DNA of 62,412 nt, taken from Balamuthia mandrillaris. Its lineage: Eukaryota. Of the stretch, positions 38,285-56,211 are shown one piece after another. The stretch's first letter is position 1. Each line of letters begins with the position of its first letter. The stretch lies in contig JAVKOQ020000087.1 in the NCBI GenBank assembly GCA_031835245.2, forward strand, positions 124,001 through 186,412, written 5' to 3'. The notes below the pieces were generated by a model. The model was not told where the DNA came from. It saw only the letters and a list, made by a program, of their open reading frames with translations, and ran no database searches. Made by a program: the position numbers and the translations under genes.

Positions 38285-40079
38285 TCAAAATTCCTCCTCT
38301 TCATCTTCATCTTCATCTTCGGTTGACTCTTCCGAGGACTCGGCAAGATCATCCAAGTGGATATCCTGCCGTGGATGCTGTACCAACAATTCGTAGATAT
38401 TTTGTGGAATCTGTCTTACAAACTGAACGGCCACCGAAATGATGAGCTGTGCATCAAGGTCTGACTTATCGATGATCTGGGGCACGTTTGGGTTTTCCTC
38501 CTTCAGCAATTCTTCTCGATGAATGACGATACGAGCCACCGTGAAGAGAATGTTGAGATGCATACCAAATGCCAACATCATGTCCCATAACTCTATGATT
38601 TGGTCCAACGGCCGCGAACAAGCGTTGAACGTGAGAATGTCTTTTTTGAGGATAGATTGAAATTGTAAATGGCTCTGAGCACAGAGAAAAGAGGGAAGAA
38701 AGACAGAGAAGAAAGAGCAAGGAGAAAAGAGGAGAGCAGAGAAACATTGAAGAGAAGCAAAGGAACAGAAGGAAACGTACAGGGAGTGTAGAGGTAGGGT
38801 GATACACCACACTTGTTGAGATGGTCGTAGAGAGGAGAGTCCACTATCTCCAAACACAGTTGCACTAAGCGCACAGCTGGCTTCACCGACCAATGTTTCT
38901 CCTCTGATTCCTCTTCTTCTTCCCCTTTCTCTCCAGCTTTCAACTTTTCTTCCACTTGCTGTTGGTCCGTTTTCTTGCTCCGATAATACAATGGACAATG
39001 AGAGAGGACTAACTCTCTCAAGCAGTGAAAGGCATCCAACTCGGGCATTACATATAAAAACATAGCCGCCACCGTGTTCAATCCTTGTACATATGCTATC
39101 CGTTGGTTGCGTGCTTCCCTTTCATCTGGGTGAAGAAGCATGAAGTAAGGATAAGTAACCACCAGAAAGAGAAAGAGAAACGACGAAAGAGAAAGAGAAA
39201 ACAAGCAAAAAGACATAGGCGGCTACTGCGATGAAAGAAAAGTGTACCACAAGAACGAAGGAATACGTTCAAAACTCGACTCAGCTTCTGTTCGGGCACC
39301 CTCTGTTTAAAGTCCGTGACCTTGCCAAAGCCGGTGCGCCCAATGTCCTTCCTTATCTGCAGGTACGCCTCCGAGAGCTCTCCCCCATAGGCCCCCTTGC
39401 GCACCCACTCCACGTAGCGCCGGGCCTCCAGGGAGCCCCTGATGCGCAGCAGGACCTTCCACACCTTGGCCCGCAGGCTGCACGTCTCGGTGGCCCTTCT
39501 CCTCTCCGACTCTGTCTCTGGGGGAAGTCCCCCGACCAACACCAACTTGCGCAGGTTGTAGAGGTTGACATCGATCTCTGTATCCCCTCCCTCCCTCCCT
39601 TCCTGCAACAGCGTCTCGTAGTCCACCCGTAGCTTGGATTCAAAGGGGGAAAGTGTGCCGGCGAACGACGAGCCCTCGTCAGAATGTTTTTCTTTTGGGG
39701 TTATCAACGCTTTTGTTGATGTTGTTTGATTAAGGGAGGAAGAATTGGAACGGGGTAATTTTTTGGGGCTGGAAGGAGGAGAGTCTGCAAAGAAGTCATC
39801 TTCGTCGTCGTTGTGGTTGTTGTTGAGAGAGAGTTGACTTCGCAGCTTTTGTTGTAATGTGTTTGGTGTTTCCTCTTCCTCATCGCTGTCACCAACCACA
39901 AAGTCATCGTCGTCGTCCTCCTCCGCTTTGGCGGAGGGGCCGCCTCCACCTCTGCGACTTCCAGTTAGATGGGGTTTGGGGGATAGCACAACGCTACTGG
40001 CAGAGGCCCTTTGGTTGACATAGTTCATGCCAGCAGCCTGTTGCAGTTCCTTCCATTGCGTCAGGTCGATGGTCTTCAT
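38285..40079 (-). CDS. BUB2: Bub2/Cdc16 TBC-domain GAP (mitotic exit/septation), 3 exons
   Basis: LRAKVWKVLL, QIRKDIGRT, YVQGLN, MPELDAF...CPLY and PLDQIIELWD..LAFGMHLNIL. Confidence 0.85.
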
Positions 40080-40145: not shown

Positions 40146-40270
40146 TACTGGGGTTCGATCGCGCGGACGCCTATCCTCAGTAAAAAAAATTATTCGTTTT
40201 CACCAGGATTCGAACCGCAGGAAAAAAAAAGAGAAAAACTTACGGTAAGCACTGGGATTCGAACCGCAGC
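40146..40270 (-). repeat. Three dispersed B-box-like (GGTTCGAATCC) repeats
   Basis: GGATTCGAACCGCAG at 40206-40220 and 40255-40269, plus a degenerate GGGGTTCGATCGC at about 40150. Confidence 0.7.
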
Positions 40271-40512
40271 TTAGGCGATGGCCCGTCTTTGCCCTCCTGC
40301 TACAGGTAGAAAATGGCACTGCGGAGGCGGCTGTTTCTGCCATGAGGGGTACTCTCTTAAAAGTGGAACTACTTTGAATATTTTGATTGGAAGTAATGGG
40401 TTTTTCCAGGATGGGGGGTCACGGCATTTTTGGCCGCTAACTTTTTCTTTCTTTGTTGGTTTTTTTTTTCATTTTATTTTTTGAAGAACAAAGAGAAATA
40501 AAAAAAAGAGCC

Positions 40513-42873
40513 ATGCCAAAGCGTGCAACAAGGCAGAGCCGAGCTCCACCGTTTATATGTACACATGTAGTGTGCACAACAGAGGCTGGAGCACGGTTCG
40601 AAGGGAGAGATAGCAAGACACTAAACGCCCATGAAAAAACAACACGTGCACATCGGCTCTGCCCACGCACGGGAACACCATGCCAAGCTTGCCAGGTGAC
40701 AGGAAATATAGATGTGAGCAAGCAATGGATTAGCTGTGGGCATGAAAAATGTGGGTTAGCCTACAAGTCAGAGAAAACAAAAAAGCAACACGAAAAGGAA
40801 GAACACATAAAGTGCTCCAATAGTTGCCAGCTCTGCAAAGAACATCAACACCAAGAGGAAGCCAAGCAACAGAAAGCGGCAATGAAGAAAAATCGTGAAG
40901 AAGAGGAGAGAGAACGAAAAAGAAAAAGAGAAGAAGAGAAAGATGAAGCAATCGAACTTGCAAATAAAAAGATGAAAGAAGTAGATCCAGCTGTTGGTCA
41001 CATAAAACTAGAAGTAGCAAAGGCTGCGGTGGAAGGTGCTCTAAAAACAAATATAGTAGATGGAGTGATAATGTTAGCACAACACTTTCCAATGATCACA
41101 ATGCACATACAAACAAACCTTTGTAACGAGCCTTGGATGCCACCAATTGACAAGCTGGTTGCGTTGAAGGATGTCATTGGTATCCCAGATAGTTGTTGGC
41201 CAATGGTAATGCTTACCTTCAACTTGGCAAAAGGAGCAAGCTTGTACTATGTCAAGAAAAGGATAAAGGAGTTGAATGCAACGATGAATGTGGAGAAGAC
41301 TGAGGGTGGACGAGGGCACCTTTTCCCATTCAAAGAGTTCATGGAGAGAGTGATTAAAGAAAACATCAACAAACCACCAACGTCAGGCATAGTGAAAGTC
41401 AAGCTTTCATTAGATGGTTCAACAGCAGCAGCTCGCGGCCATAGACAGATGGAGCTTGGAACCCTAGAGACACTCCATGATGAGTGGTCACTGAAAGCGC
41501 TCAAGTCTTCTCACAACTGTCGACCTTGGTTGATGTACCTTGGAAAAGAGGATAGCTCAACTCTTGAAGCAGAATTGGGAAGTCAGTTGAACGTTATCAA
41601 CGAAATAGCAATGAAAGGAAGCACACTTACCATTGAAGCAGAGGAAGTTAACATTGAGCTTTTTCTTACCGTGGATCTCAAGGCCTTGAAGGTACTAAGT
41701 GGCCTAAATAGCTTCTACTCAAGCAAAGCAACATACTGCTGTTTTTGGTGTTTGGCAACGCGACAAGAGATTGGAGATAGAAATTTGAAAGAAGAAACAA
41801 TAAGCTTTCGTACCGTGGAAAAAGTGATCAATAAGTTGCCAACACGAAAGAAAAAGAGGGCGAAGGAGTTTCTGGAACAGCTAAAAAGAACAGAGCCCAA
41901 CAACATTAACTATGAAAATCCTGGAATGGTTGTTTGGGAAGTGATTAAGAACTTACAACAAAGTACAAGAGAAAAGAGTGCATGCAATCATGCTGGATAC
42001 ATCAACAAACCTCTTCTTCTGTTTCCTCCGACTCGGGTTGTACCAGACCTTCTTCATTTAGTCATGGGAGTGGTGCGTAAGCTATTGATGAAGACGGCAG
42101 AGCTTGTAACTGAAAATGACGATGAACTTCATCTTCAAATACTCAACAAGTTGATCGAAATGGCGATTTATATTGTTGATATAGAAGAGAAAAGAAAAGA
42201 GATAGAGGACAAAAGGAAGAAGAAAAAGAGAAACAATCAAACAAAGATAGAATTAGCACAACAACTAAAGAGGAGCCGCTTAAACCGAGCTGAGTACTTA
42301 CACATTTTGCAACACTACAAAGAGATTCTTGACCTCTTCCAGTCAACAGAAAAAGAAGCAAACAAAACACTCCAGAACATATATAAAGCGTGGTGGGAGT
42401 TTCATCGCTTGTGTACATTAGCTTTGCAAGAAGGCATTATTATCATAGAAGAGCAATGGAAAAAAGAAGCAAAAAAGTTCAAAGATGCATACCTTGATGC
42501 CTTTGCTCCAGAAGACTTCACAACCTATATGCATGTGTTTGTTGATCATCTTGGACACTTTTTGGAAAAATATGGATGTGTGGAGATGTTTAGCAATTTT
42601 GGAATTGAGCACACACATAGCAGAGTGAAAAGGACAATAAGACAACGTACAAGTGGCTTCAGAGGAATTAATACAGGAACCTGTGACGTAACAAAGGATG
42701 TTCTCACCACAGTGCACAGAACACAAACAATTTCTTCTACTCATCCTGAAGCTGCAAAGGCCCATAAAGCATATCACCAGCAAGAATCCTGGGCAGACAA
42801 GAACTTGGTAAAATTTCCAGAGTTAATGATGTACTTGAAAAGAGAACAAAAAGGAAAGGAAAAAGAAGAATAA
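40513..42873 (+). CDS. RAG1/Transib-like (CMC-Transib clan) DDE transposase, 786 aa, intronless and uninterrupted
   Basis: KLSLD301GS, FLTVD388LK, YCC410FWC413, PDLLH515, TYMH674VFVDH679 and FSNFGIE699H occur in the same order as the RAG1 core motifs. The N-terminus carries Cys/His modules. Confidence 0.82.
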   Translation: MPKRATRQSRAPPFICTHVVCTTEAGARFEGRDSKTLNAHEKTTRAHRLCPRTGTPCQACQVTGNIDVSKQWISCGHEKCGLAYKSEKTKKQHEKEEHIKCSNSCQLCKEHQHQEEAKQQKAAMKKNREEEERERKRKREEEKDEAIELANKKMKEVDPAVGHIKLEVAKAAVEGALKTNIVDGVIMLAQHFPMITMHIQTNLCNEPWMPPIDKLVALKDVIGIPDSCWPMVMLTFNLAKGASLYYVKKRIKELNATMNVEKTEGGRGHLFPFKEFMERVIKENINKPPTSGIVKVKLSLDGSTAAARGHRQMELGTLETLHDEWSLKALKSSHNCRPWLMYLGKEDSSTLEAELGSQLNVINEIAMKGSTLTIEAEEVNIELFLTVDLKALKVLSGLNSFYSSKATYCCFWCLATRQEIGDRNLKEETISFRTVEKVINKLPTRKKKRAKEFLEQLKRTEPNNINYENPGMVVWEVIKNLQQSTREKSACNHAGYINKPLLLFPPTRVVPDLLHLVMGVVRKLLMKTAELVTENDDELHLQILNKLIEMAIYIVDIEEKRKEIEDKRKKKKRNNQTKIELAQQLKRSRLNRAEYLHILQHYKEILDLFQSTEKEANKTLQNIYKAWWEFHRLCTLALQEGIIIIEEQWKKEAKKFKDAYLDAFAPEDFTTYMHVFVDHLGHFLEKYGCVEMFSNFGIEHTHSRVKRTIRQRTSGFRGINTGTCDVTKDVLTTVHRTQTISSTHPEAAKAHKAYHQQESWADKNLVKFPELMMYLKREQKGKEKEE

Positions 42874-43019
42874 TACACTTACTATCTTCACGATTGTTGT
42901 GTTCTTGGTTTTTGTTGTTGTTCATTGTTGTACCCTGATTGCGCGAGGCGGCGCGGATGACAGTGAAAGTAGCGGTGGCGTATGTTATGCCGCGTCAGCG
43001 TCGCGTCTGTGTTGGCCTC

Positions 43020-43266
43020 CGCGTTGGCGCGTCAGCGTTGGTGCTGGTGCGTTCTGGCGTTGGCGTTGGCGTTGGCGTCATGCGTTATGTTGGCGTAGCG
43101 GTATGTTGGGCGTTGGCGTTGGCGTTGGCGTTGGCGTTGGCGTTGGTGTTGGCGCTGCGCTGGCGTTACGCTGGCGTTGGTGTTGGCGTTATGCCGGTGC
43201 TGGCGTTTGCGTTATGCTGCAGGAGTCACGGTACCATGTTTTGCGTTTGGTGCTGGCGGTTGGCGT
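43020..43266 (+). repeat. Degenerate (GGCGTT)n hexamer tandem array downstream of the transposase
   Basis: Perfect core at about 43109-43146, with degenerate GGTGTT/GGCGCT copies around it. Confidence 0.9.
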
Positions 43267-44666
43267 CCCTCCATCCTTTTTCATCTTTGACGTCATGTGC
43301 TTTCTGGAAAAGTACAAAGAAATGAACAAAAAGACAAAGACAAGGAAGAAAAGATCTAAATCGTTCTTACCCTCATTGCTTGACGTTGGAACTGTGTTTC
43401 AGAAAGAAAGAAAAAGTATGAGAGGAGAGCGAGAGGAGAGGGGGAGGAGAGCCGAGAGGAGCAACCTACTGTTCCAATGGTGTGGCCATTGCAATACCCC
43501 TTGAGGGTTGAAGACTCTGTAGTGCACAGAGAGCGTTGTTTTCTTTGTTTTGGCGTCATGCAAAAGAGAACAAGGAGGGACTATGTTTGCGTAGCTCCCT
43601 AAAGGAAACGTCTTGCTTTGTGGCATACAGGCCCAAAAGGTTGACTGGACTAGACTCTCTGTTGTCTCCCAGTGTACAGAGGATCTGCCAAACACAAGCA
43701 TAATATACTCAGTAGGGATAGGTGCAGAAGAATAGATAGGAAGATTTTGACGTCGTCGGAGGATGTTTTTCAACAAAACAGGAGAAAGAACGGTGACAAT
43801 AAAATCCAAAGCATTAACGTCTGTAACAAAAAACCCATCTTCCTGCTTTGTTGTCCTCCTTAATCAAAACTTGGTGTTGTGCCCCGTTCTTTGCTTCCAT
43901 CTTGTTTTCCCCCTTTTGAAGAAGAAGAAAAAAAAAAGAAACCTAATGTCGACATGAAAAAAAAGATAGCTGGCGTTTCTGCTTTCAGCTGCCACATCAG
44001 CTTTCCTCCGCAGTGGGATGGACACACGTTGTGCCTCCTGCACGCACTGCAATGCGTCCTTCACCTTCGTCGCAAAAAAGGACGGTCAGGGTTCATGCAG
44101 TAAAGAAGGAAAAAACGAGGTGTGCATACAACCAGGACTGCTGAAACAACAAAGATAAAAAAAAAACGGTTCCATACATAAAAAACTATGATGGGGGAAG
44201 TTCTGCTGCGTCCTGCCAGCTTTACTCCTTGGCTCAGAGCAGCCCAGTACGGCACTCCAGACACAATCCACGAGCTCAACGAGGCACATGCCCGCCTAGG
44301 GTTAACCGCAACACCTTACAAAACGACTCTCACCGAAAAAGGCCAATACTAATGCACGCTGCTACATGTCGACTTGACGGGAGTAATGCCTTTAATTCAT
44401 TACCTTTATTATTATGCTTTTTTTCATTATCTACTTTCTTCAATGCAAACCTAGGCCTCAAAGAAAGTTATTCTTGTATCTTCCGTTCAAACGAATTCAC
44501 TTCCGCGAAAGGGTGGATGGTGGGCGGTTCTTCGCCGGTAAAACACGCACCCTCCCTCCAAAGTATACCTCTTTCTTCCCACAGGGCTTGAGAGTGAAAG
44601 AGAGCAAAGTGAATAAGAGAGAATAGAACTCTTTTATTTACGTTTTTTTAAAAAAAGAAAGCAAAT

Positions 44667-47351
44667 ATGTTGGGAATATTTGGAAAAAGAAAGAAAGAAG
44701 AAGAAAGTGGAGGAGGAGGAACTACCAACGCTCGTCCAGTCTTTGGGATTCCTTTTGCAGACGCTGCACAACTAAGCGAGGATGGAAGCATACCGGTGCC
44801 GGTTCGCAAATGCGTGGAGTACATCAATGAAAAAGGTTTGCTTGCAAAGGAATGTTGCGTACTTGCTTTTGTTTGTTTAGTGACTGTTGTGACAAACAAA
44901 CAAGGTTTGGAGGAGGAAGGCATTTACCGCAAGTCTGGAAGTTTTGGGCGGATCAAAGACTATCGAAGAGCTTTTGACAACGGTTTGGTTTCTTTCTCTT
45001 TAAAGTTTCTCTCTATAGTGGTTTTTCACTTTCGATCATACTTTCGCCTTTGCTCTTTTCTTTTTAACAAAAAACAAACATAAACAGGCGAAGAAGTAAA
45101 CTTTTCAGAAGAACAAGACCCCTCCACGGTAGCCGGCGTGCTCCTCCTCTTCTTCAAAGAGCTGCCCGAGCCCATCTACACCGACTCCCTCCTCAACAGC
45201 TTCCTCCAACTCTGCCGCATCTCCGAGCGAACCCTCCGCTTCAACGCTCTCACCAGCCTGCTCTGCCAGCTGCCCCGCTGCAACCGCATCACGCTACGTT
45301 ACATGGCGGAGCATTGGCGCAACGTGGCGATGAATGCGGCAGCCAATAAGATGTCCCCCGCCAACATAGGCGTTTGCTTTGGCTCTGTATCGAGCGCTAT
45401 AGTGCCAGTGCTTATAGATGCTATAGGGCAGCCGGGGGCGTGGCCTTCCGAGGCAGAGTTGGAGGCGATCGTGCAGCAGGCCACCACCGAAGAGCAGTGG
45501 ACGCATGAGGAGGAGGACCCTCCATCCTCTTTGGCATGGGAGGAAGGAGGAGAAGGGTATTACGGTGATGAAAGAAGCGGAGAAGAAGAATCGGAAGAGG
45601 CTGCTCGTCCTCCGCTTCCGCCTGGAAGACCGACAAAAGATGGTAGCCGAGAGGCAGCCTCTGTACCTCCCCCGCTTCCACAAAGAGAGCCGTTCTCACA
45701 CTCTTCGTCATCTACGACGACAGCGGCACCTCAACAACCACTGCTTAGTCCTCGAAGACCTCCGCCGCCACTTCCTGCCGGTAGACCATCATCACAACCC
45801 CAATCTCTTCCTTCTATCCCACCAGCCACCGTTGGCAGAGGTGCAGTTGCTCCTCCATTACCTCCTTCTCGTGGCGTAGGAGGAAGAGGCGTGGGTGTTA
45901 GTCAAAGAGGAGGAGAAAGAGGGGGAAGAGGAGCAGGTGGGAATGGTGGTAATAGACCTCTCCCATCAGGACAACACCCACAACAGCAACAAAATAGAGG
46001 AAGATCTCATGTGATGAGAACGAGATATTGCACCTTACAGATGGAAGCCACCCATGTCACCAAGAAATTCTTTGGTAGTCCTGGCGAGTTGCGGTTGCGC
46101 TGCTTCACCACCAAACTTCCGTTTTACAAGCCCGGTGATACCATCTCTGTTTCTGGTATGTCCTTCTAGCCTTGTGCTTTTTCTGATTTCGATATGAAGA
46201 GAACAGAGAGAGGTGAAGCACTAACTCTCGAAAAAAAAAAAAAACCAGTGATGCTGGAAAATGAGACAAAGCAGAAGGTCAACGACCTTGCCATCTTTCT
46301 AGAAACCACCAAGTTTGTGGGGCCAAAGAGAAAAGCTGAAAAGATCAGAAGTCAGAAAACGGTATTCCATAAAGGCCTCGACTTTCAAGTGGAAAAAGCT
46401 GCCGCCAATAGCAAAGAAGAAGACGCAACGAACAAACCTGGTCTGTTGGTCAGTTGCTTCCAAAAGGAGTTTGTGTTCCAGGTTCCCATAGACGCGCCGA
46501 ACTCGGAAGAAGGAGTAGTGCAGCATTCTCTCATCATCGAGTTGGGACTCAAGTTGCATCGCCCATTGGAAGCTGTTCTTCCTTTGACCATCTCCAACAA
46601 CGGCAGCTTCCCTCCTCGTCTAGAGGGAGCTGTGAAGAAAGAGGGTGGTCTCCTTTCTCTTCCTCCACAACTTCTTCCTCCTCTCCCTTCTACTGCTGCT
46701 GGAGCTGGCGGTGGTAGAAGACCAAGTTCATTTGGTGGCGTTCATACGTCTTCATCTTCGCCTGCTTCTCCTCCTCCTTCCGTTGGCCCAAAGATGCCGT
46801 TCTTGTCTCGCTCTGGCTCTGATAATTCTCTTCCTCTCGATGGAAGCAACAACGACAACGTCTTCCTCAACAATAACGGAAGTAACATCGTATCTAACTC
46901 TCCGCCACTCCCACGACGACCTTCCACTCCACCTCTTCCGCGTAGACACTCGGCAGCATCCATCGATACTTCCATACTTGCTGCTTTAAACTCTTCGTCT
47001 TCCTCTTCTCCTCCTTCACCTTCTCCTTTAGGCTTTGCTCCTTCATCATTTACCAAAGACACGCCGCCTTCTCTTCCTCCTCGTGCCGGTCACTCTCTTT
47101 TGCCTCCTTCTTCTCCATCGTCACCTTCTTCTGCTCCTCCTTCTCTTGCCTCATCCCCTTTGCCACCATCAGCGCACCCAATAGCTCCACGTGGAGCAGC
47201 ACATCCACAGCTGACGGTCACGTTAGGTGGCATTCAACCGATCTCAGTGCGTGGACGCTCTGCAGCGCCCATTCCTGCCGGCACAGTGCGGCGGGCATCC
47301 CGTCCTATTGCTGACTTGACAAGTATGTTCGATGCTTCCTCTGGTTGTTAA
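44667..47351 (+). CDS. RhoGAP with proline-rich regions and an arrestin-C-like beta-sandwich domain, spliced
   Basis: VFGIP, IPVPVRKCVEYI..|GLEEEGIYRKSGS (arginine finger), VAGVLLLFFKELPEPI and NKMSPANIGVCFG. Later KKFFGSPGELRL......YKPGDTISVSV.LENET...V. Confidence 0.85.
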
Positions 47352-54120: not shown

Positions 54121-56211
54121 CAGTACTCTTCGAGGGTGGTGACCCGCACCACCACACCTTCGGGGGCTAGCGCTCTCACGTCCTGCAAACTAAGCGTAGT
54201 TGAGAAGGAGTTTTAGCTCGATAACCCCGTCATCGCTGCGAGAAAGAAGGGCAAGCCGTACACTCGCTGCTGGAAATTGGGGAACTGTGCACTGCCCCCT
54301 GTGAGCACAATATTGCCGTAGAGATGAGGTCGTATATCATCATGAGCTGCTTCAATGCTCTGTACAATGGTCTCTGCAATGCCAGCTTGGTCAATCCCTA
54401 AGGAACAGTAGTTGTTGTTGGGAGGTATTAAGTATTGCCGCAGTTCTTGGATAAAGGCGCAAAAACAAGCAGTATGAACGTACCGATATCAGATGGATGA
54501 AACAGAATCTCAGGTATCACTATCCGCTCGTTGTTCATGACCAAAATTTGCTGATGGATTAAAAGTCACACAAGTGAGTAAACCCACAAATGAAAGTTCT
54601 TGCGAGAATGCGGGGATGGGGTGGGCTAGAGGGCTACAGAAGCGCCCATCCTCTTTCCCATCGGCGCGTCCCCATACGGCGAGAAAAATAACCTTGTCTT
54701 CTGGAATCGGGGAGCCCTCCTTCATCACCCAACCACGGTCGGTAGTGGTGTAATCGGGGAGTACATAATGCCGTTTAATGCTATTCAATGGGTCTCTGTT
54801 TGTGTGGTTAGATAACAGCATTGCAAAGTTAGGATACTAGCATTTACCGTGTAGCTTGCATGTCCTTCATAAATTGAAGCGACACAAAGCACAATCGCTC
54901 TTTCACCACGTTCATTAGAAGAGTTTCTTCCATCATATTCCAAGTCCTGGAAAGACAGGGAAGAACGAAAAACGTTTAAGCTAACATGTAGCACAAAGTC
55001 GATAAGAGAGCACTAGAACAGAGGGGCCGCTACCGAAACGAAACAACTTCTTTGAGATAATTGGTGAGTGCCTTACCCCCAACGTTTATCCGTTTTATGG
55101 CGTGGTTGATTTTGTGTTGACCGAAGAAGGGCACAACGTGTGTTGCTGAATAGCCACAGTCCACTAACAGAGTGCAGGGTTTGTGTGCTACATCTTCATT
55201 GCTTGCTTGCAGTTGTGCAGTACCGGCACGTGTTTCCTTCTCATGCTGTATCACACTCAGCAATTGTGCTGGAGTTTCAAGTGTTGACAGAAGAATAGAG
55301 GGGAGGGGGAGGCAGAGGCAGAGGCAGAGGCAGAGGCAGAGGCAGAGGCAGAGGCAGAGGCAGAGGCAGAGGCAGAGGCAGAGGCAGAGGCAGAGGCAGA
55401 GGCAGAGGCAGAGGCAGAGGCAGAGGCAGAGGCAGAGGCAGAGGCAGAGGCAGAGGCAGAGGCAGAGGCAGAGGCAGCAAGGAAGAGAGTAAGGTAAGTG
55501 GGTAGTGATAAGATAGGCATGGGGAATAATGGCGTACAAGAAGGGCAACACACGGAGCGGAAGCCATACTCTTCAAATAGCACCTCAAACATGACGTCTT
55601 GCAACTCCAAAGGATTGAACAAGGGTTGCGTGACCAACAGTTCGTGTTCATTGGCCTGCAGCTGGAAGGAGAGGGTGAGACCAGACCAGCCATGACGCGC
55701 TAATGAGCAGAATAGGGTGGGGGAGGTGTACCTGCAAGCCATGTGGACCAAGAGCCCGGTCCAGAACCTCTTTTTGTACCTCCCAGTTAACAAGGTAGCC
55801 CTTCCAAAGAGAAGCAAAGTCAGCGAGGAAAACAGGCCTGGGTGTGGGGCAGTACTAATTCTCCACTGTACCTTCTCAAAAGGTCGCTGGTAGAACAGGG
55901 AGGAAGTGTCCACACAACTACCTAGCTCTTCGCCCACAAACTTTCTCCGCTCGCTCTTCGACTTAACAACCTGGTTTGGGGTGGCTGACCTGCGATCGTC
56001 CAGCGTTGGTACATCATCACCACCACCAGTTTGGAGGGGAGCAAGCTCTCATTAACATATGAATGAAGGAAAGAAAGAAACGACAAGAAACGACAAGAAA
56101 GAAAGAAACGCACCGTGGAGGACGGGAACTGGTTCCCACTCGCAAGTTGGCGCCGCCCAAGTCCAGCACCAGCACCTCCTCCTGCTGCTCCTGCTCTTGG
56201 CCCAGCAGCAT
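53913..56211 (-). CDS. ACTR6: Actin-related protein 6 (SWR1 complex), multi-exon
   Basis: LFYQRPFEK|GYLVNW, TQPLFNP...EVLFEEYGF, LVDCGYSATHVVPF, RINVGGK.LTNYLKE, YVLPDY, NNER..PEILFHPSDIG and PI.GAWQGG. Confidence 0.93.
55311..55476 (+). repeat. Perfect (GGCAGA)n hexamer microsatellite in an ARP6 intron
   Basis: Read directly from the sequence. Confidence 0.97.

Follow-up and report, generated by a model that had tools for sequence, protein, structure and literature searches.

In mouse RAG1 the catalytic triad is formed by D600, D708 and E962, with zinc ligands at C727/C730 and H937/H942, and how a single-gene Transib-like element became the RAG1-RAG2 pair is an open question in RAG origins. 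The CMCT clade comprises EnSpm/CACTA, Mirage, Chapaev and Transib together with Plavaka, ESTA and Lanisha and is defined by the same motifs and ends as are found at the locus described here; within it ESTA is another lineage with RAG1 as a structure-based match (PMC12730594). Transib is defined by 5-bp target-site duplications and ends resembling recombination signal sequences (RSS; PMC1131882), both of which a preprint reports to be labile (10.64898/2026.08.26.747230). Convergent RAG1L-RAG2L elements and the Chapa domain have been described (PMC7204232, PMC4411706), and an active RAG1L-RAG2L element is present in Aureococcus, with RAG1L fragments in other early-branching eukaryotes (PMC9435367). 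Here we analyse a window of 62,412 nucleotides from Balamuthia mandrillaris (contig JAVKOQ020000087.1, positions 124,001 to 186,412; coordinates below are those of the window). Very probably it contains a 3.7-kb, likely recently active cut-and-paste transposon, which encodes a transposase with a predicted RAG1-core fold and, tail-to-tail with it, a conserved gene likely to act in transposition or its control.

The transposase is predicted to be a DNA-cutting enzyme and a distant relative of RAG1. The transposase call is firm; a special kinship with RAG1 is no more than possible. We place the lineage in the CMCT clade, with Amoebozoa as its centre and apart from Transib and RAGL in the strict sense. 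The novelty lies in a family centred on Amoebozoa whose conserved convergent partner is not RAG2. No description of such a family was found in the literature, though Repbase and most subscription journals lay outside the search and a prior name is possible.

The transposase and its predicted fold

The transposase gene occupies 40513..42873 (+) and is, as the original prediction had it, a single intronless reading frame of 786 aa, uninterrupted by any stop and rich in A (892 of 2,361 bases, 38%). The residues then singled out, D301, D388, C410, C413, D512/H515, H674, H679 and E699, each lie at the position claimed, H674 and E699 being 25 residues apart and D388 and C410 22. Conservation and profile alignment place the putative catalytic core at 41413..42609 (+), with D301 at 41413, D388 at 41674, C410/C413 at 41740-41751, H515 at 42055, H674/H679 at 42532-42549 and E699 at 42607. 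Among the rows of the family alignment with a residue at the column, the triad is conserved in 51/51 (D301), 57/58 (D388) and 61/66 (E699), and the zinc ligands in 60/63 (C410 and C413) and 65/67 (H674 and H679). Judged by this conservation, the match at the named catalytic and zinc-binding residues is more than chance. The motif likened to DALH of RAG1 is kept in the family only at its His (H515, 62/63), for at position 512 the 62 rows have Cys 41 times and Asp 19 times.

Single-sequence searches with the window transposase found no Pfam family and no PDB match, and a two-row profile of the core ranked zebrafish RAG1 first in the PDB (E 0.029). A profile search of 1.84 billion representative proteins returned 504 at E ≤ 0.001 and 189 at 1e-10. 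The family alignment (A4) has 86 rows, consisting of 84 of the 150 matches listed, the query core and P0003. In the PDB its profile matched lancelet RAG1L (6b40, E 4.8e-10), zebrafish RAG1 (1.1e-5) and mouse RAG1 (0.02), with no match to HzTransib at E ≤ 10 and none to any transposase besides RAG1L and RAG1. The profile pairs D388, the CxxC, H515, the HxxxxH and E699 with the corresponding motifs of zebrafish RAG1; D301 lies outside the profile match, and its assignment comes from conservation and from the structural match over model residues 20-551.

A first fold from a four-row alignment had a predicted local distance difference test (pLDDT) score of 36 and was discarded; the core model from A4 reached pLDDT 91.8 with a predicted template-modelling score (pTM) of 0.91. 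Foldseek matched this model to RAG1 (4.6e-13) and HzTransib (6.0e-9). Superposition on RAG1 gave Z 25.0 and a root-mean-square deviation (rmsd) of 3.9 over 442 aligned residues with 16% identity, and the other Z scores were 22.7 for RAG1L, 21.2 for HzTransib, 12.9 for the P element and 8.7 for Hermes; identity to RAG1, RAG1L and HzTransib was 13-17%. In the predicted model the Asp-Asp-Glu (DDE) triad sits in an RNase H fold that matches the RAG1 core (Z 25). Within these match lists, solved structures from the clan are limited to RAG1 and Transib, and none is known to have been solved for EnSpm, Mirage, Chapaev or Plavaka. Against predicted models, the Planoprotostelium homologue gave template-modelling (TM) scores of 0.77 for RAG1, 0.77 for Plavaka, 0.74 for CACTA Transposase_21, 0.81 for a cnidarian cluster and 0.72-0.74 for fungal clusters. 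Because the Plavaka and CACTA folds match about as well, the transposase is called a member of the CMCT clade and not the closest kin of RAG1. These data do not show the family to be particularly near to the origin of V(D)J recombination, the Plavaka, CACTA and cnidarian models matching the homologue as well as RAG1 does.

No Pfam transposase family was matched by any of the 86 members (Transposase_21, Plavaka and DUF1258 were absent at E ≤ 0.01), in keeping with the poorly described lineage that had been proposed; one of the 86 has a weak match to DUF1280. RAG1 or Transib was likewise matched by none of the 86, in a copy of Pfam that may predate newer RAG1 models. Taken together, residue conservation, profile matches and structure matches support a transposase of the RAG1/Transib/Chapaev clan that is predicted to be catalytically complete.

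N-terminal to the core are two copies of a CxHxxC...H...H-C...CxxC motif (40558..40836, +; aa 16-60 and 75-108), predicted to bind zinc. By pattern match the motif occurs in 10 of 19 proteins tested, including none of the three animal-type and neither of the two named dictyostelid proteins, and the region matches no Pfam family above cut-off. It is a candidate end-recognition domain. At the other end of the protein, one family transposase, P0023 (805 aa), has a C-terminal Ulp1-type protease domain, one member matching Peptidase_C48 (8.9e-19). Ulp1-type protease cargo is known from other DNA transposons.

Ends, alleles and copies of the element

Contigs and reads from public sequencing runs (X1, X3, X4, X6, X12 and X17) were compared with the window. 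Inverted ends and run contigs delimit a DNA transposon of 3,699 bp at 40317..44015 (+) with two convergent genes. Its left terminal inverted repeat, CACTGCGGAGG (40317..40327, +), is an 11-bp perfect match to the right one (44005..44015, -), and an 11-bp inverted pair starting with CAC arises in 13 of 2,000 shuffles of the flanks. On the left, an X3 contig whose exact match begins at 40317 is preceded by 777 other letters, and two X4 contigs have other letters before 40317; on the right, an X6 contig departs from the window sequence after 44015, an X4 contig departs after 44014 and an X12 piece terminates at 44014. The check for an empty-site allele was positive in two runs, with the left flank joined to the right flank without the element from 40166 to 44020 in X1 (depth 41, the left-junction contig having depth 42) and from 40229 to 44014 in X4. 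The insertion is therefore polymorphic.

Other flanks at both ends, element-free alleles and deletion derivatives support a young transposon and not a domesticated recombinase. Of the two possibilities first put forward, a young active transposon or a domesticated recombinase, the young transposon has stood and domestication has not. An intact reading frame among host genes, with all the catalytic residues in place, would suit a RAG1-like recombinase serving the amoeba, but the inverted ends, the other flanks on both sides, the element-free joints in X1 and X4, the deletion derivatives and the presence of near-identical and of broken copies largely refute that explanation and leave it most improbable.

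The closest proteins to the window transposase are Balamuthia mandrillaris entries, and word-indexed homologue searches returned Balamuthia proteins only (3, 3 and 4 matches). Its 90% cluster contains four proteins on four contigs, 95-99.7% identical, one of them at 784/786 residues. A sister Balamuthia family, 42% identical to the window transposase, has 14 members, and the five compared are 97.8-99.7% identical to their representative. Two further Balamuthia families occur among the profile matches, one with copies identical at 781/782 residues, and broken copies occur alongside near-identical ones. In Balamuthia such families number at least four; three or more of them include very recent copies, and insertions vary between alleles and between strains.

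Copy number rests on the annotated protein records and the sequencing runs, in which read depth is only a rough guide. In X1 depth is 206 for the core contig, which spans 1,436 bases with a single difference, and about 330-350 for the end contigs; read loosely, this suggests several near-identical full copies plus several shorter ones. One derivative in X1 has lost 41132-42803 (joint 41131-42804, with 5-bp microhomology, depth 136), and X4 has deletion joints 40614-41182 and 41461-43111. In X4, where one core contig has a 4-base insertion at 41671, internal-deletion derivatives outnumber the full core about 4:1 by depth; different strains amplified different derivatives.

No RSS-like nonamer or bipartite end is visible by eye in the first 45 bases, and the inverted match ends after 11 bp. 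Comparison of the flanks gives an uncertain candidate for a 2-bp target-site duplication, GG at 40315..40316 (+) and again at 44016-44017, and no duplication of 3, 4 or 5 bp at the window copy (flanks AAATGG / GGATGG; 5-bp AATGG versus GGATG). The element-free X4 allele, which is diverged, aligns from 44014 and fits a 1-bp duplication better than one of 2 bp. The target stagger of the element appears to be below the 5 bp known from RAG and Transib.

Relatives and the place of the family

Hundreds of members, at about 20-45% identity, make up the family, for which Pfam has no model. Eight of the 20 profile matches looked up (of 504) carry names, and seven of these eight are amoebozoan; the names include Balamuthia (two), Planoprotostelium fungivorum, Heterostelium, Synstelium and Acytostelium, with Nematostella in the weak tail. 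A quick tree of 42 rows, made without an outgroup after 44 of the 86 rows were dropped for fewer than 330 core columns, groups 32 rows including all the amoebozoan names (Shimodaira-Hasegawa-like approximate likelihood-ratio test, SH-aLRT, 96) and sets four animal-type rows apart (100), with six more. The animal-type sequences form an abundant sister group (L026-L035, L038-L040; P0076, P0136, P0144, P0149; the Nematostella member) that shares these motifs and likewise matches no Pfam transposase family.

Among 174 candidates from a metagenome scan, 39 were related loci, a first scan having given none among 146. No relative was present in 104 and 110 candidate stretches of viral contigs, nor was there a match at E ≤ 0.001 in a viral structure library. 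A scan of prokaryote genomes yielded one of 15 stretches, L040, a 3.2-kb contig of animal type that was not accepted as a bacterial member; it lies in a bacterial genome bin and is possibly contamination. Ends of the form CACT(G/T) recur in six elements (L006, L007, L009/L010, L016, L022 and L024), related ends in metagenome elements being CACTGCG, CACTTCG and CACTGTA. None of six metagenome elements with related ends has a 5-bp duplication, although assembled flanks may belong to different copies and only those of L007 and L022 are long enough to trust. L007:1468-3837 is a compact single-gene member with CACTGTA ends (11/12 matching) and no flank duplication, and L008 is the same insertion. 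At L006:4609-4618 a second sequence starting with CACTGC lies 8 bases past the right end, perhaps from adjoining elements.

With the RAG1 core and RAGL/ProtoRAG (6dbo, 4wwx, 6b40) the transposase shares the fold predicted for its core (Z of 22-25 across about 440 residues), the DDE triad, a CxxC and HxxxxH zinc site and CAC ends, and the element shares the arrangement of two convergent genes between its ends. It differs from RAGL in the partner, which in RAGL is RAG2L and here is a protein of about 154 aa that has no kelch or PHD match and is too short for a six-bladed kelch. It differs also in its 11-bp, symmetric ends without RSS-like structure, in having no 5-bp duplication and, from RAG1, in an N-terminus with two CxHxxC-type motifs and no RING match. 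With Transib (HzTransib, 6pqx) it has in common the fold (Z 21.2, rmsd 4.0, 401 aligned), a size of 3-4 kb, CAC ends and non-autonomous derivatives (PMC1131882), whereas the second Asp and the Glu are 311 aa apart as against 206-214 in Transib and 253 in RAG1 (PMC1131882), the 5-bp duplication is missing, a second gene is present and of the Transib ends only CAC is shared. The family departs from Transib and RAGL in the features tested, save for the convergent two-gene layout, as in RAGL.

It is nevertheless conceivable that the family truly belongs to Transib or RAGL, for instance as a deep Subgroup I Transib whose ends and target geometry have changed, so that it would be a close relative of the RAG transposon. 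The profile matches RAG1L and RAG1 and no other PDB transposase, the ends begin with CAC, a dictyostelid homologue has RAG1 clusters (0.96) as its neighbours in a language-model comparison, and Transibs with 3-bp and TA duplications are described in a preprint (10.64898/2026.08.26.747230). We consider this unlikely in view of an identity of 13-17%, compared with a mean of 26% across RAG1L and Transib taken together (PMC9435367), the absence of RAG1 or Transib Pfam matches with the reservation on the Pfam copy given above, the lack of a 5-bp duplication and of an RSS-like end, and the equal match of Plavaka, CACTA, fungal and cnidarian predicted models.

Placement in the CMCT clade is the assignment that we prefer. 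The predicted RNase H fold with its DDE triad, the C410/C413 and H674/H679 pairs and the 5'-CA..TG-3' termini are as in that clade, while of its 2-5 bp duplication there are 2 bp (GG) in the window, where the element-free allele is diverged, none at L007 and 1 bp at L022. The partner gene matches nothing, and the likeness to EnSpm/CACTA, Plavaka and Mirage is at the level of the fold only. The Cys/His motifs of the window transposase differ in pattern from the RAG1/Chapa-type motifs (PMC1131882) that would recall Chapaev, and have no Pfam match.

The family fills a gap for Amoebozoa in the CMCT clade. Amoebae are called minor hosts in a broad survey of DDE transposases (10.1101/2021.09.26.461848), none of the amoebozoan names searched occurs in the supplement text of PMC9435367 (as distinct from its species figure), and the Balamuthia annotation paper (PMC10471605) contains no word starting with "transpos". 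RAG origin is unmoved by the family, given that protist RAG-like elements have already been published (PMC9435367).

A possible reading, compatible with our preferred one and held only tentatively, is that the family is DDT of Dictyostelium discoideum. DDT-A and DDT-B (PMC5633606, PMC9012585, PMC2665215) are also amoebozoan DNA transposons with transposases unlike known ones, DDT being the largest family in D. discoideum (PMC5633606), and dictyostelid homologues are among the profile matches. On the other side, no D. discoideum protein is among the 20 looked up of the 504 matches, and DDT-B, compared by description only, is larger at 5,471 bp (PMC9012585) than the 2.4-4.6 kb of the elements here. 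Were this reading true, the layout would be less novel and DDT would gain an enzyme family. The DDT elements of D. discoideum are DNA transposons that have two genes, short duplications and a transposase not assigned to any family.

The convergent second gene, a possible mechanism and the surroundings

The second gene (ORF2) lies at 43293..43900 (-) and encodes about 154 aa of no known family, with an ATG at 43900, a main exon to 43470 and, from the X6 contigs, GT-AG introns at 43392-43469 and 43304-43370 (-). On the minus strand of the window an exon of 127 codons is open at 43471-43851, and the first 15 codons of the gene are out of frame with it. At 43853 the window copy is two bases short of X1, X3 and X4; with these bases the exon falls in frame with the ATG at 43900, giving the length of about 154 aa, and their absence from the window is an error or else a frameshift private to that copy. 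A loose end in X3 behind 43885 suggested that the window copy carries a deletion, which was rejected, as X1 and X4 contigs run through as the window does. Contigs of X6, a run labelled "DNA?" although its contigs skip introns, leave out five minus-strand GT-AG introns, of which two are close to the right end and three lie across the transposase gene; a sixth comes from X17 reads. A strain-variable TGGCGT-type tandem repeat between the two genes (43055..43219, +) falls within the putative 3' untranslated part of ORF2.

In several metagenome loci the ORF2 exon has a minus-strand match immediately behind the transposase. A profile built without the window recovers the window exon at E 9.8e-15 among 4,132 segments and also finds five elements outside its seed. 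With overlapping contigs merged, ORF2 is present in 10 of 17 amoebozoan-type and none of 12 animal-type metagenome elements, always tail-to-tail, in counts where kin share labels; the transposases of the ORF2-bearing elements are about 27-42% identical to that of the window in their best segments. Identity of ORF2 by codon position is 0.59/0.76/0.39 and 0.46/0.63/0.33, a pattern which, at the level of sequence, shows a coding gene under protein-level selection. Neither Pfam nor the PDB gave a match to ORF2, which also bears no likeness to the transposase profile, and no RAG2-like kelch (+PHD) gene was found between the ends, where ORF2 is the only other gene found. The earlier remark that there is no partner nearby thus holds for RAG2 and does not allow for this conserved, non-kelch gene inside the same element. 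A Ulp1 protease, suggested by an "HW" motif, was dropped because HW is not conserved in the ORF2 alignment (A6). A complex predicted from the core and ORF2 scored 0.02 with the alignments unused and the fold of the partner uncertain, and says nothing either way.

Our guess, with somewhat better than even confidence, is that ORF2 is an element-encoded helper or regulator rather than neutral cargo. That it is inherited cargo, or a mere source of antisense RNA with no part in the transposition complex, would agree with its absence from L007/L008, an element with its own ends, and with the spliced minus-strand transcripts that cross the transposase gene. What speaks against cargo is that 10 distinct elements, with transposases so far diverged, keep ORF2 in one place and one orientation, and also the codon-position pattern; we regard cargo as the less probable account though a real one.

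A number of observations weigh against the reading of a young, recently active CMCT element with a working partner gene. ORF2 is not visible in 7 of the 17 amoebozoan-type elements, several of them truncated, and L007/L008, a 2,370-bp element with its own inverted ends and 4.5 kb of sequence downstream, lacks it, so ORF2 is dispensable in some members; the 0/12 in animal-type elements may reflect distance, the ORF2 profile having been made from amoebozoan-type loci. The RNA check that had been proposed, on X17, placed only 22 of 12.9 million reads on the stretch; they carry variants of a copy that has diverged, and in most of them the first mate lies on the plus strand, the class that contains the minus-strand intron. 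Since the reads are few and come from such a copy, they do not show sense expression of the window copy. Position 406 of the window transposase is Ala where most family rows have a Ser preceding the CxxC. The four annotated copies may include alleles of a single locus, and the duplication length varies from 2 bp (window) to none (L007) and 1 bp (L022). The quick tree does not place the family because it has no RAG1, Transib or EnSpm rows. Mobility itself is deduced from ends, flanks and alleles, no excision or insertion event having been seen.

By analogy with RAG1 and Transib, a dimer of the transposase would bind both ends, and D301, D388 and E699 with two metal ions would nick at the CAC terminus. 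The element would be freed through hairpins on the flanking DNA and its 3' ends joined to a new target with a stagger shorter than 5 bp. The N-terminal Cys/His motifs may read the ends in place of the nonamer-binding domain of RAG1, and the shorter deletion derivatives would be mobilised in trans. Minus-strand transcripts run, spliced, from ORF2 across the transposase gene; they are antisense to it and may damp or silence the transposase. It is doubtful, though worth stating, that amoebae carry an unrecognised mobile RAG1-fold branch in which the small tail-to-tail gene, gained independently of RAG2, is a dedicated subunit of the transposase; if true, this would be a second natural experiment in a RAG1-type enzyme gaining a partner, with a shorter target stagger. 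A transposase of predicted RAG1 fold beside a different conserved small gene, in young intact elements, lets the idea of a recurring partner be tested, and the family may supply an enzyme family for Dictyostelium DDT.

The element lies between a RabGAP-TBC gene (39096-40079, -), about 240 bases upstream of its start, and a RhoGAP-like gene (44667-47351, +), both pointing away from it, and may affect their promoters. To the left of the element, by 51 and 100 bases, are two copies of the polymerase III B-box-like motif GGTTCGAATCC (40206-40216 and 40255-40265, -), the sole two in the 62-kb window, where 0.06 are expected. The segment 40167-40316, which contains them, has no alignment in the element-free alleles and may represent an allele-specific short repeat or a favoured target. 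In and beside the element neither a tRNA nor an Rfam family was found, and no tRNA was called at these motifs. B-box targeting as a trait of the family was not supported, the motif occurring in 1 of 40 loci, far from the element, with no tRNA in 27 loci. Further along the window, at 55277-55742, a long six-base tandem repeat reads as (SA)n or (LP)n in two minus-strand frames.

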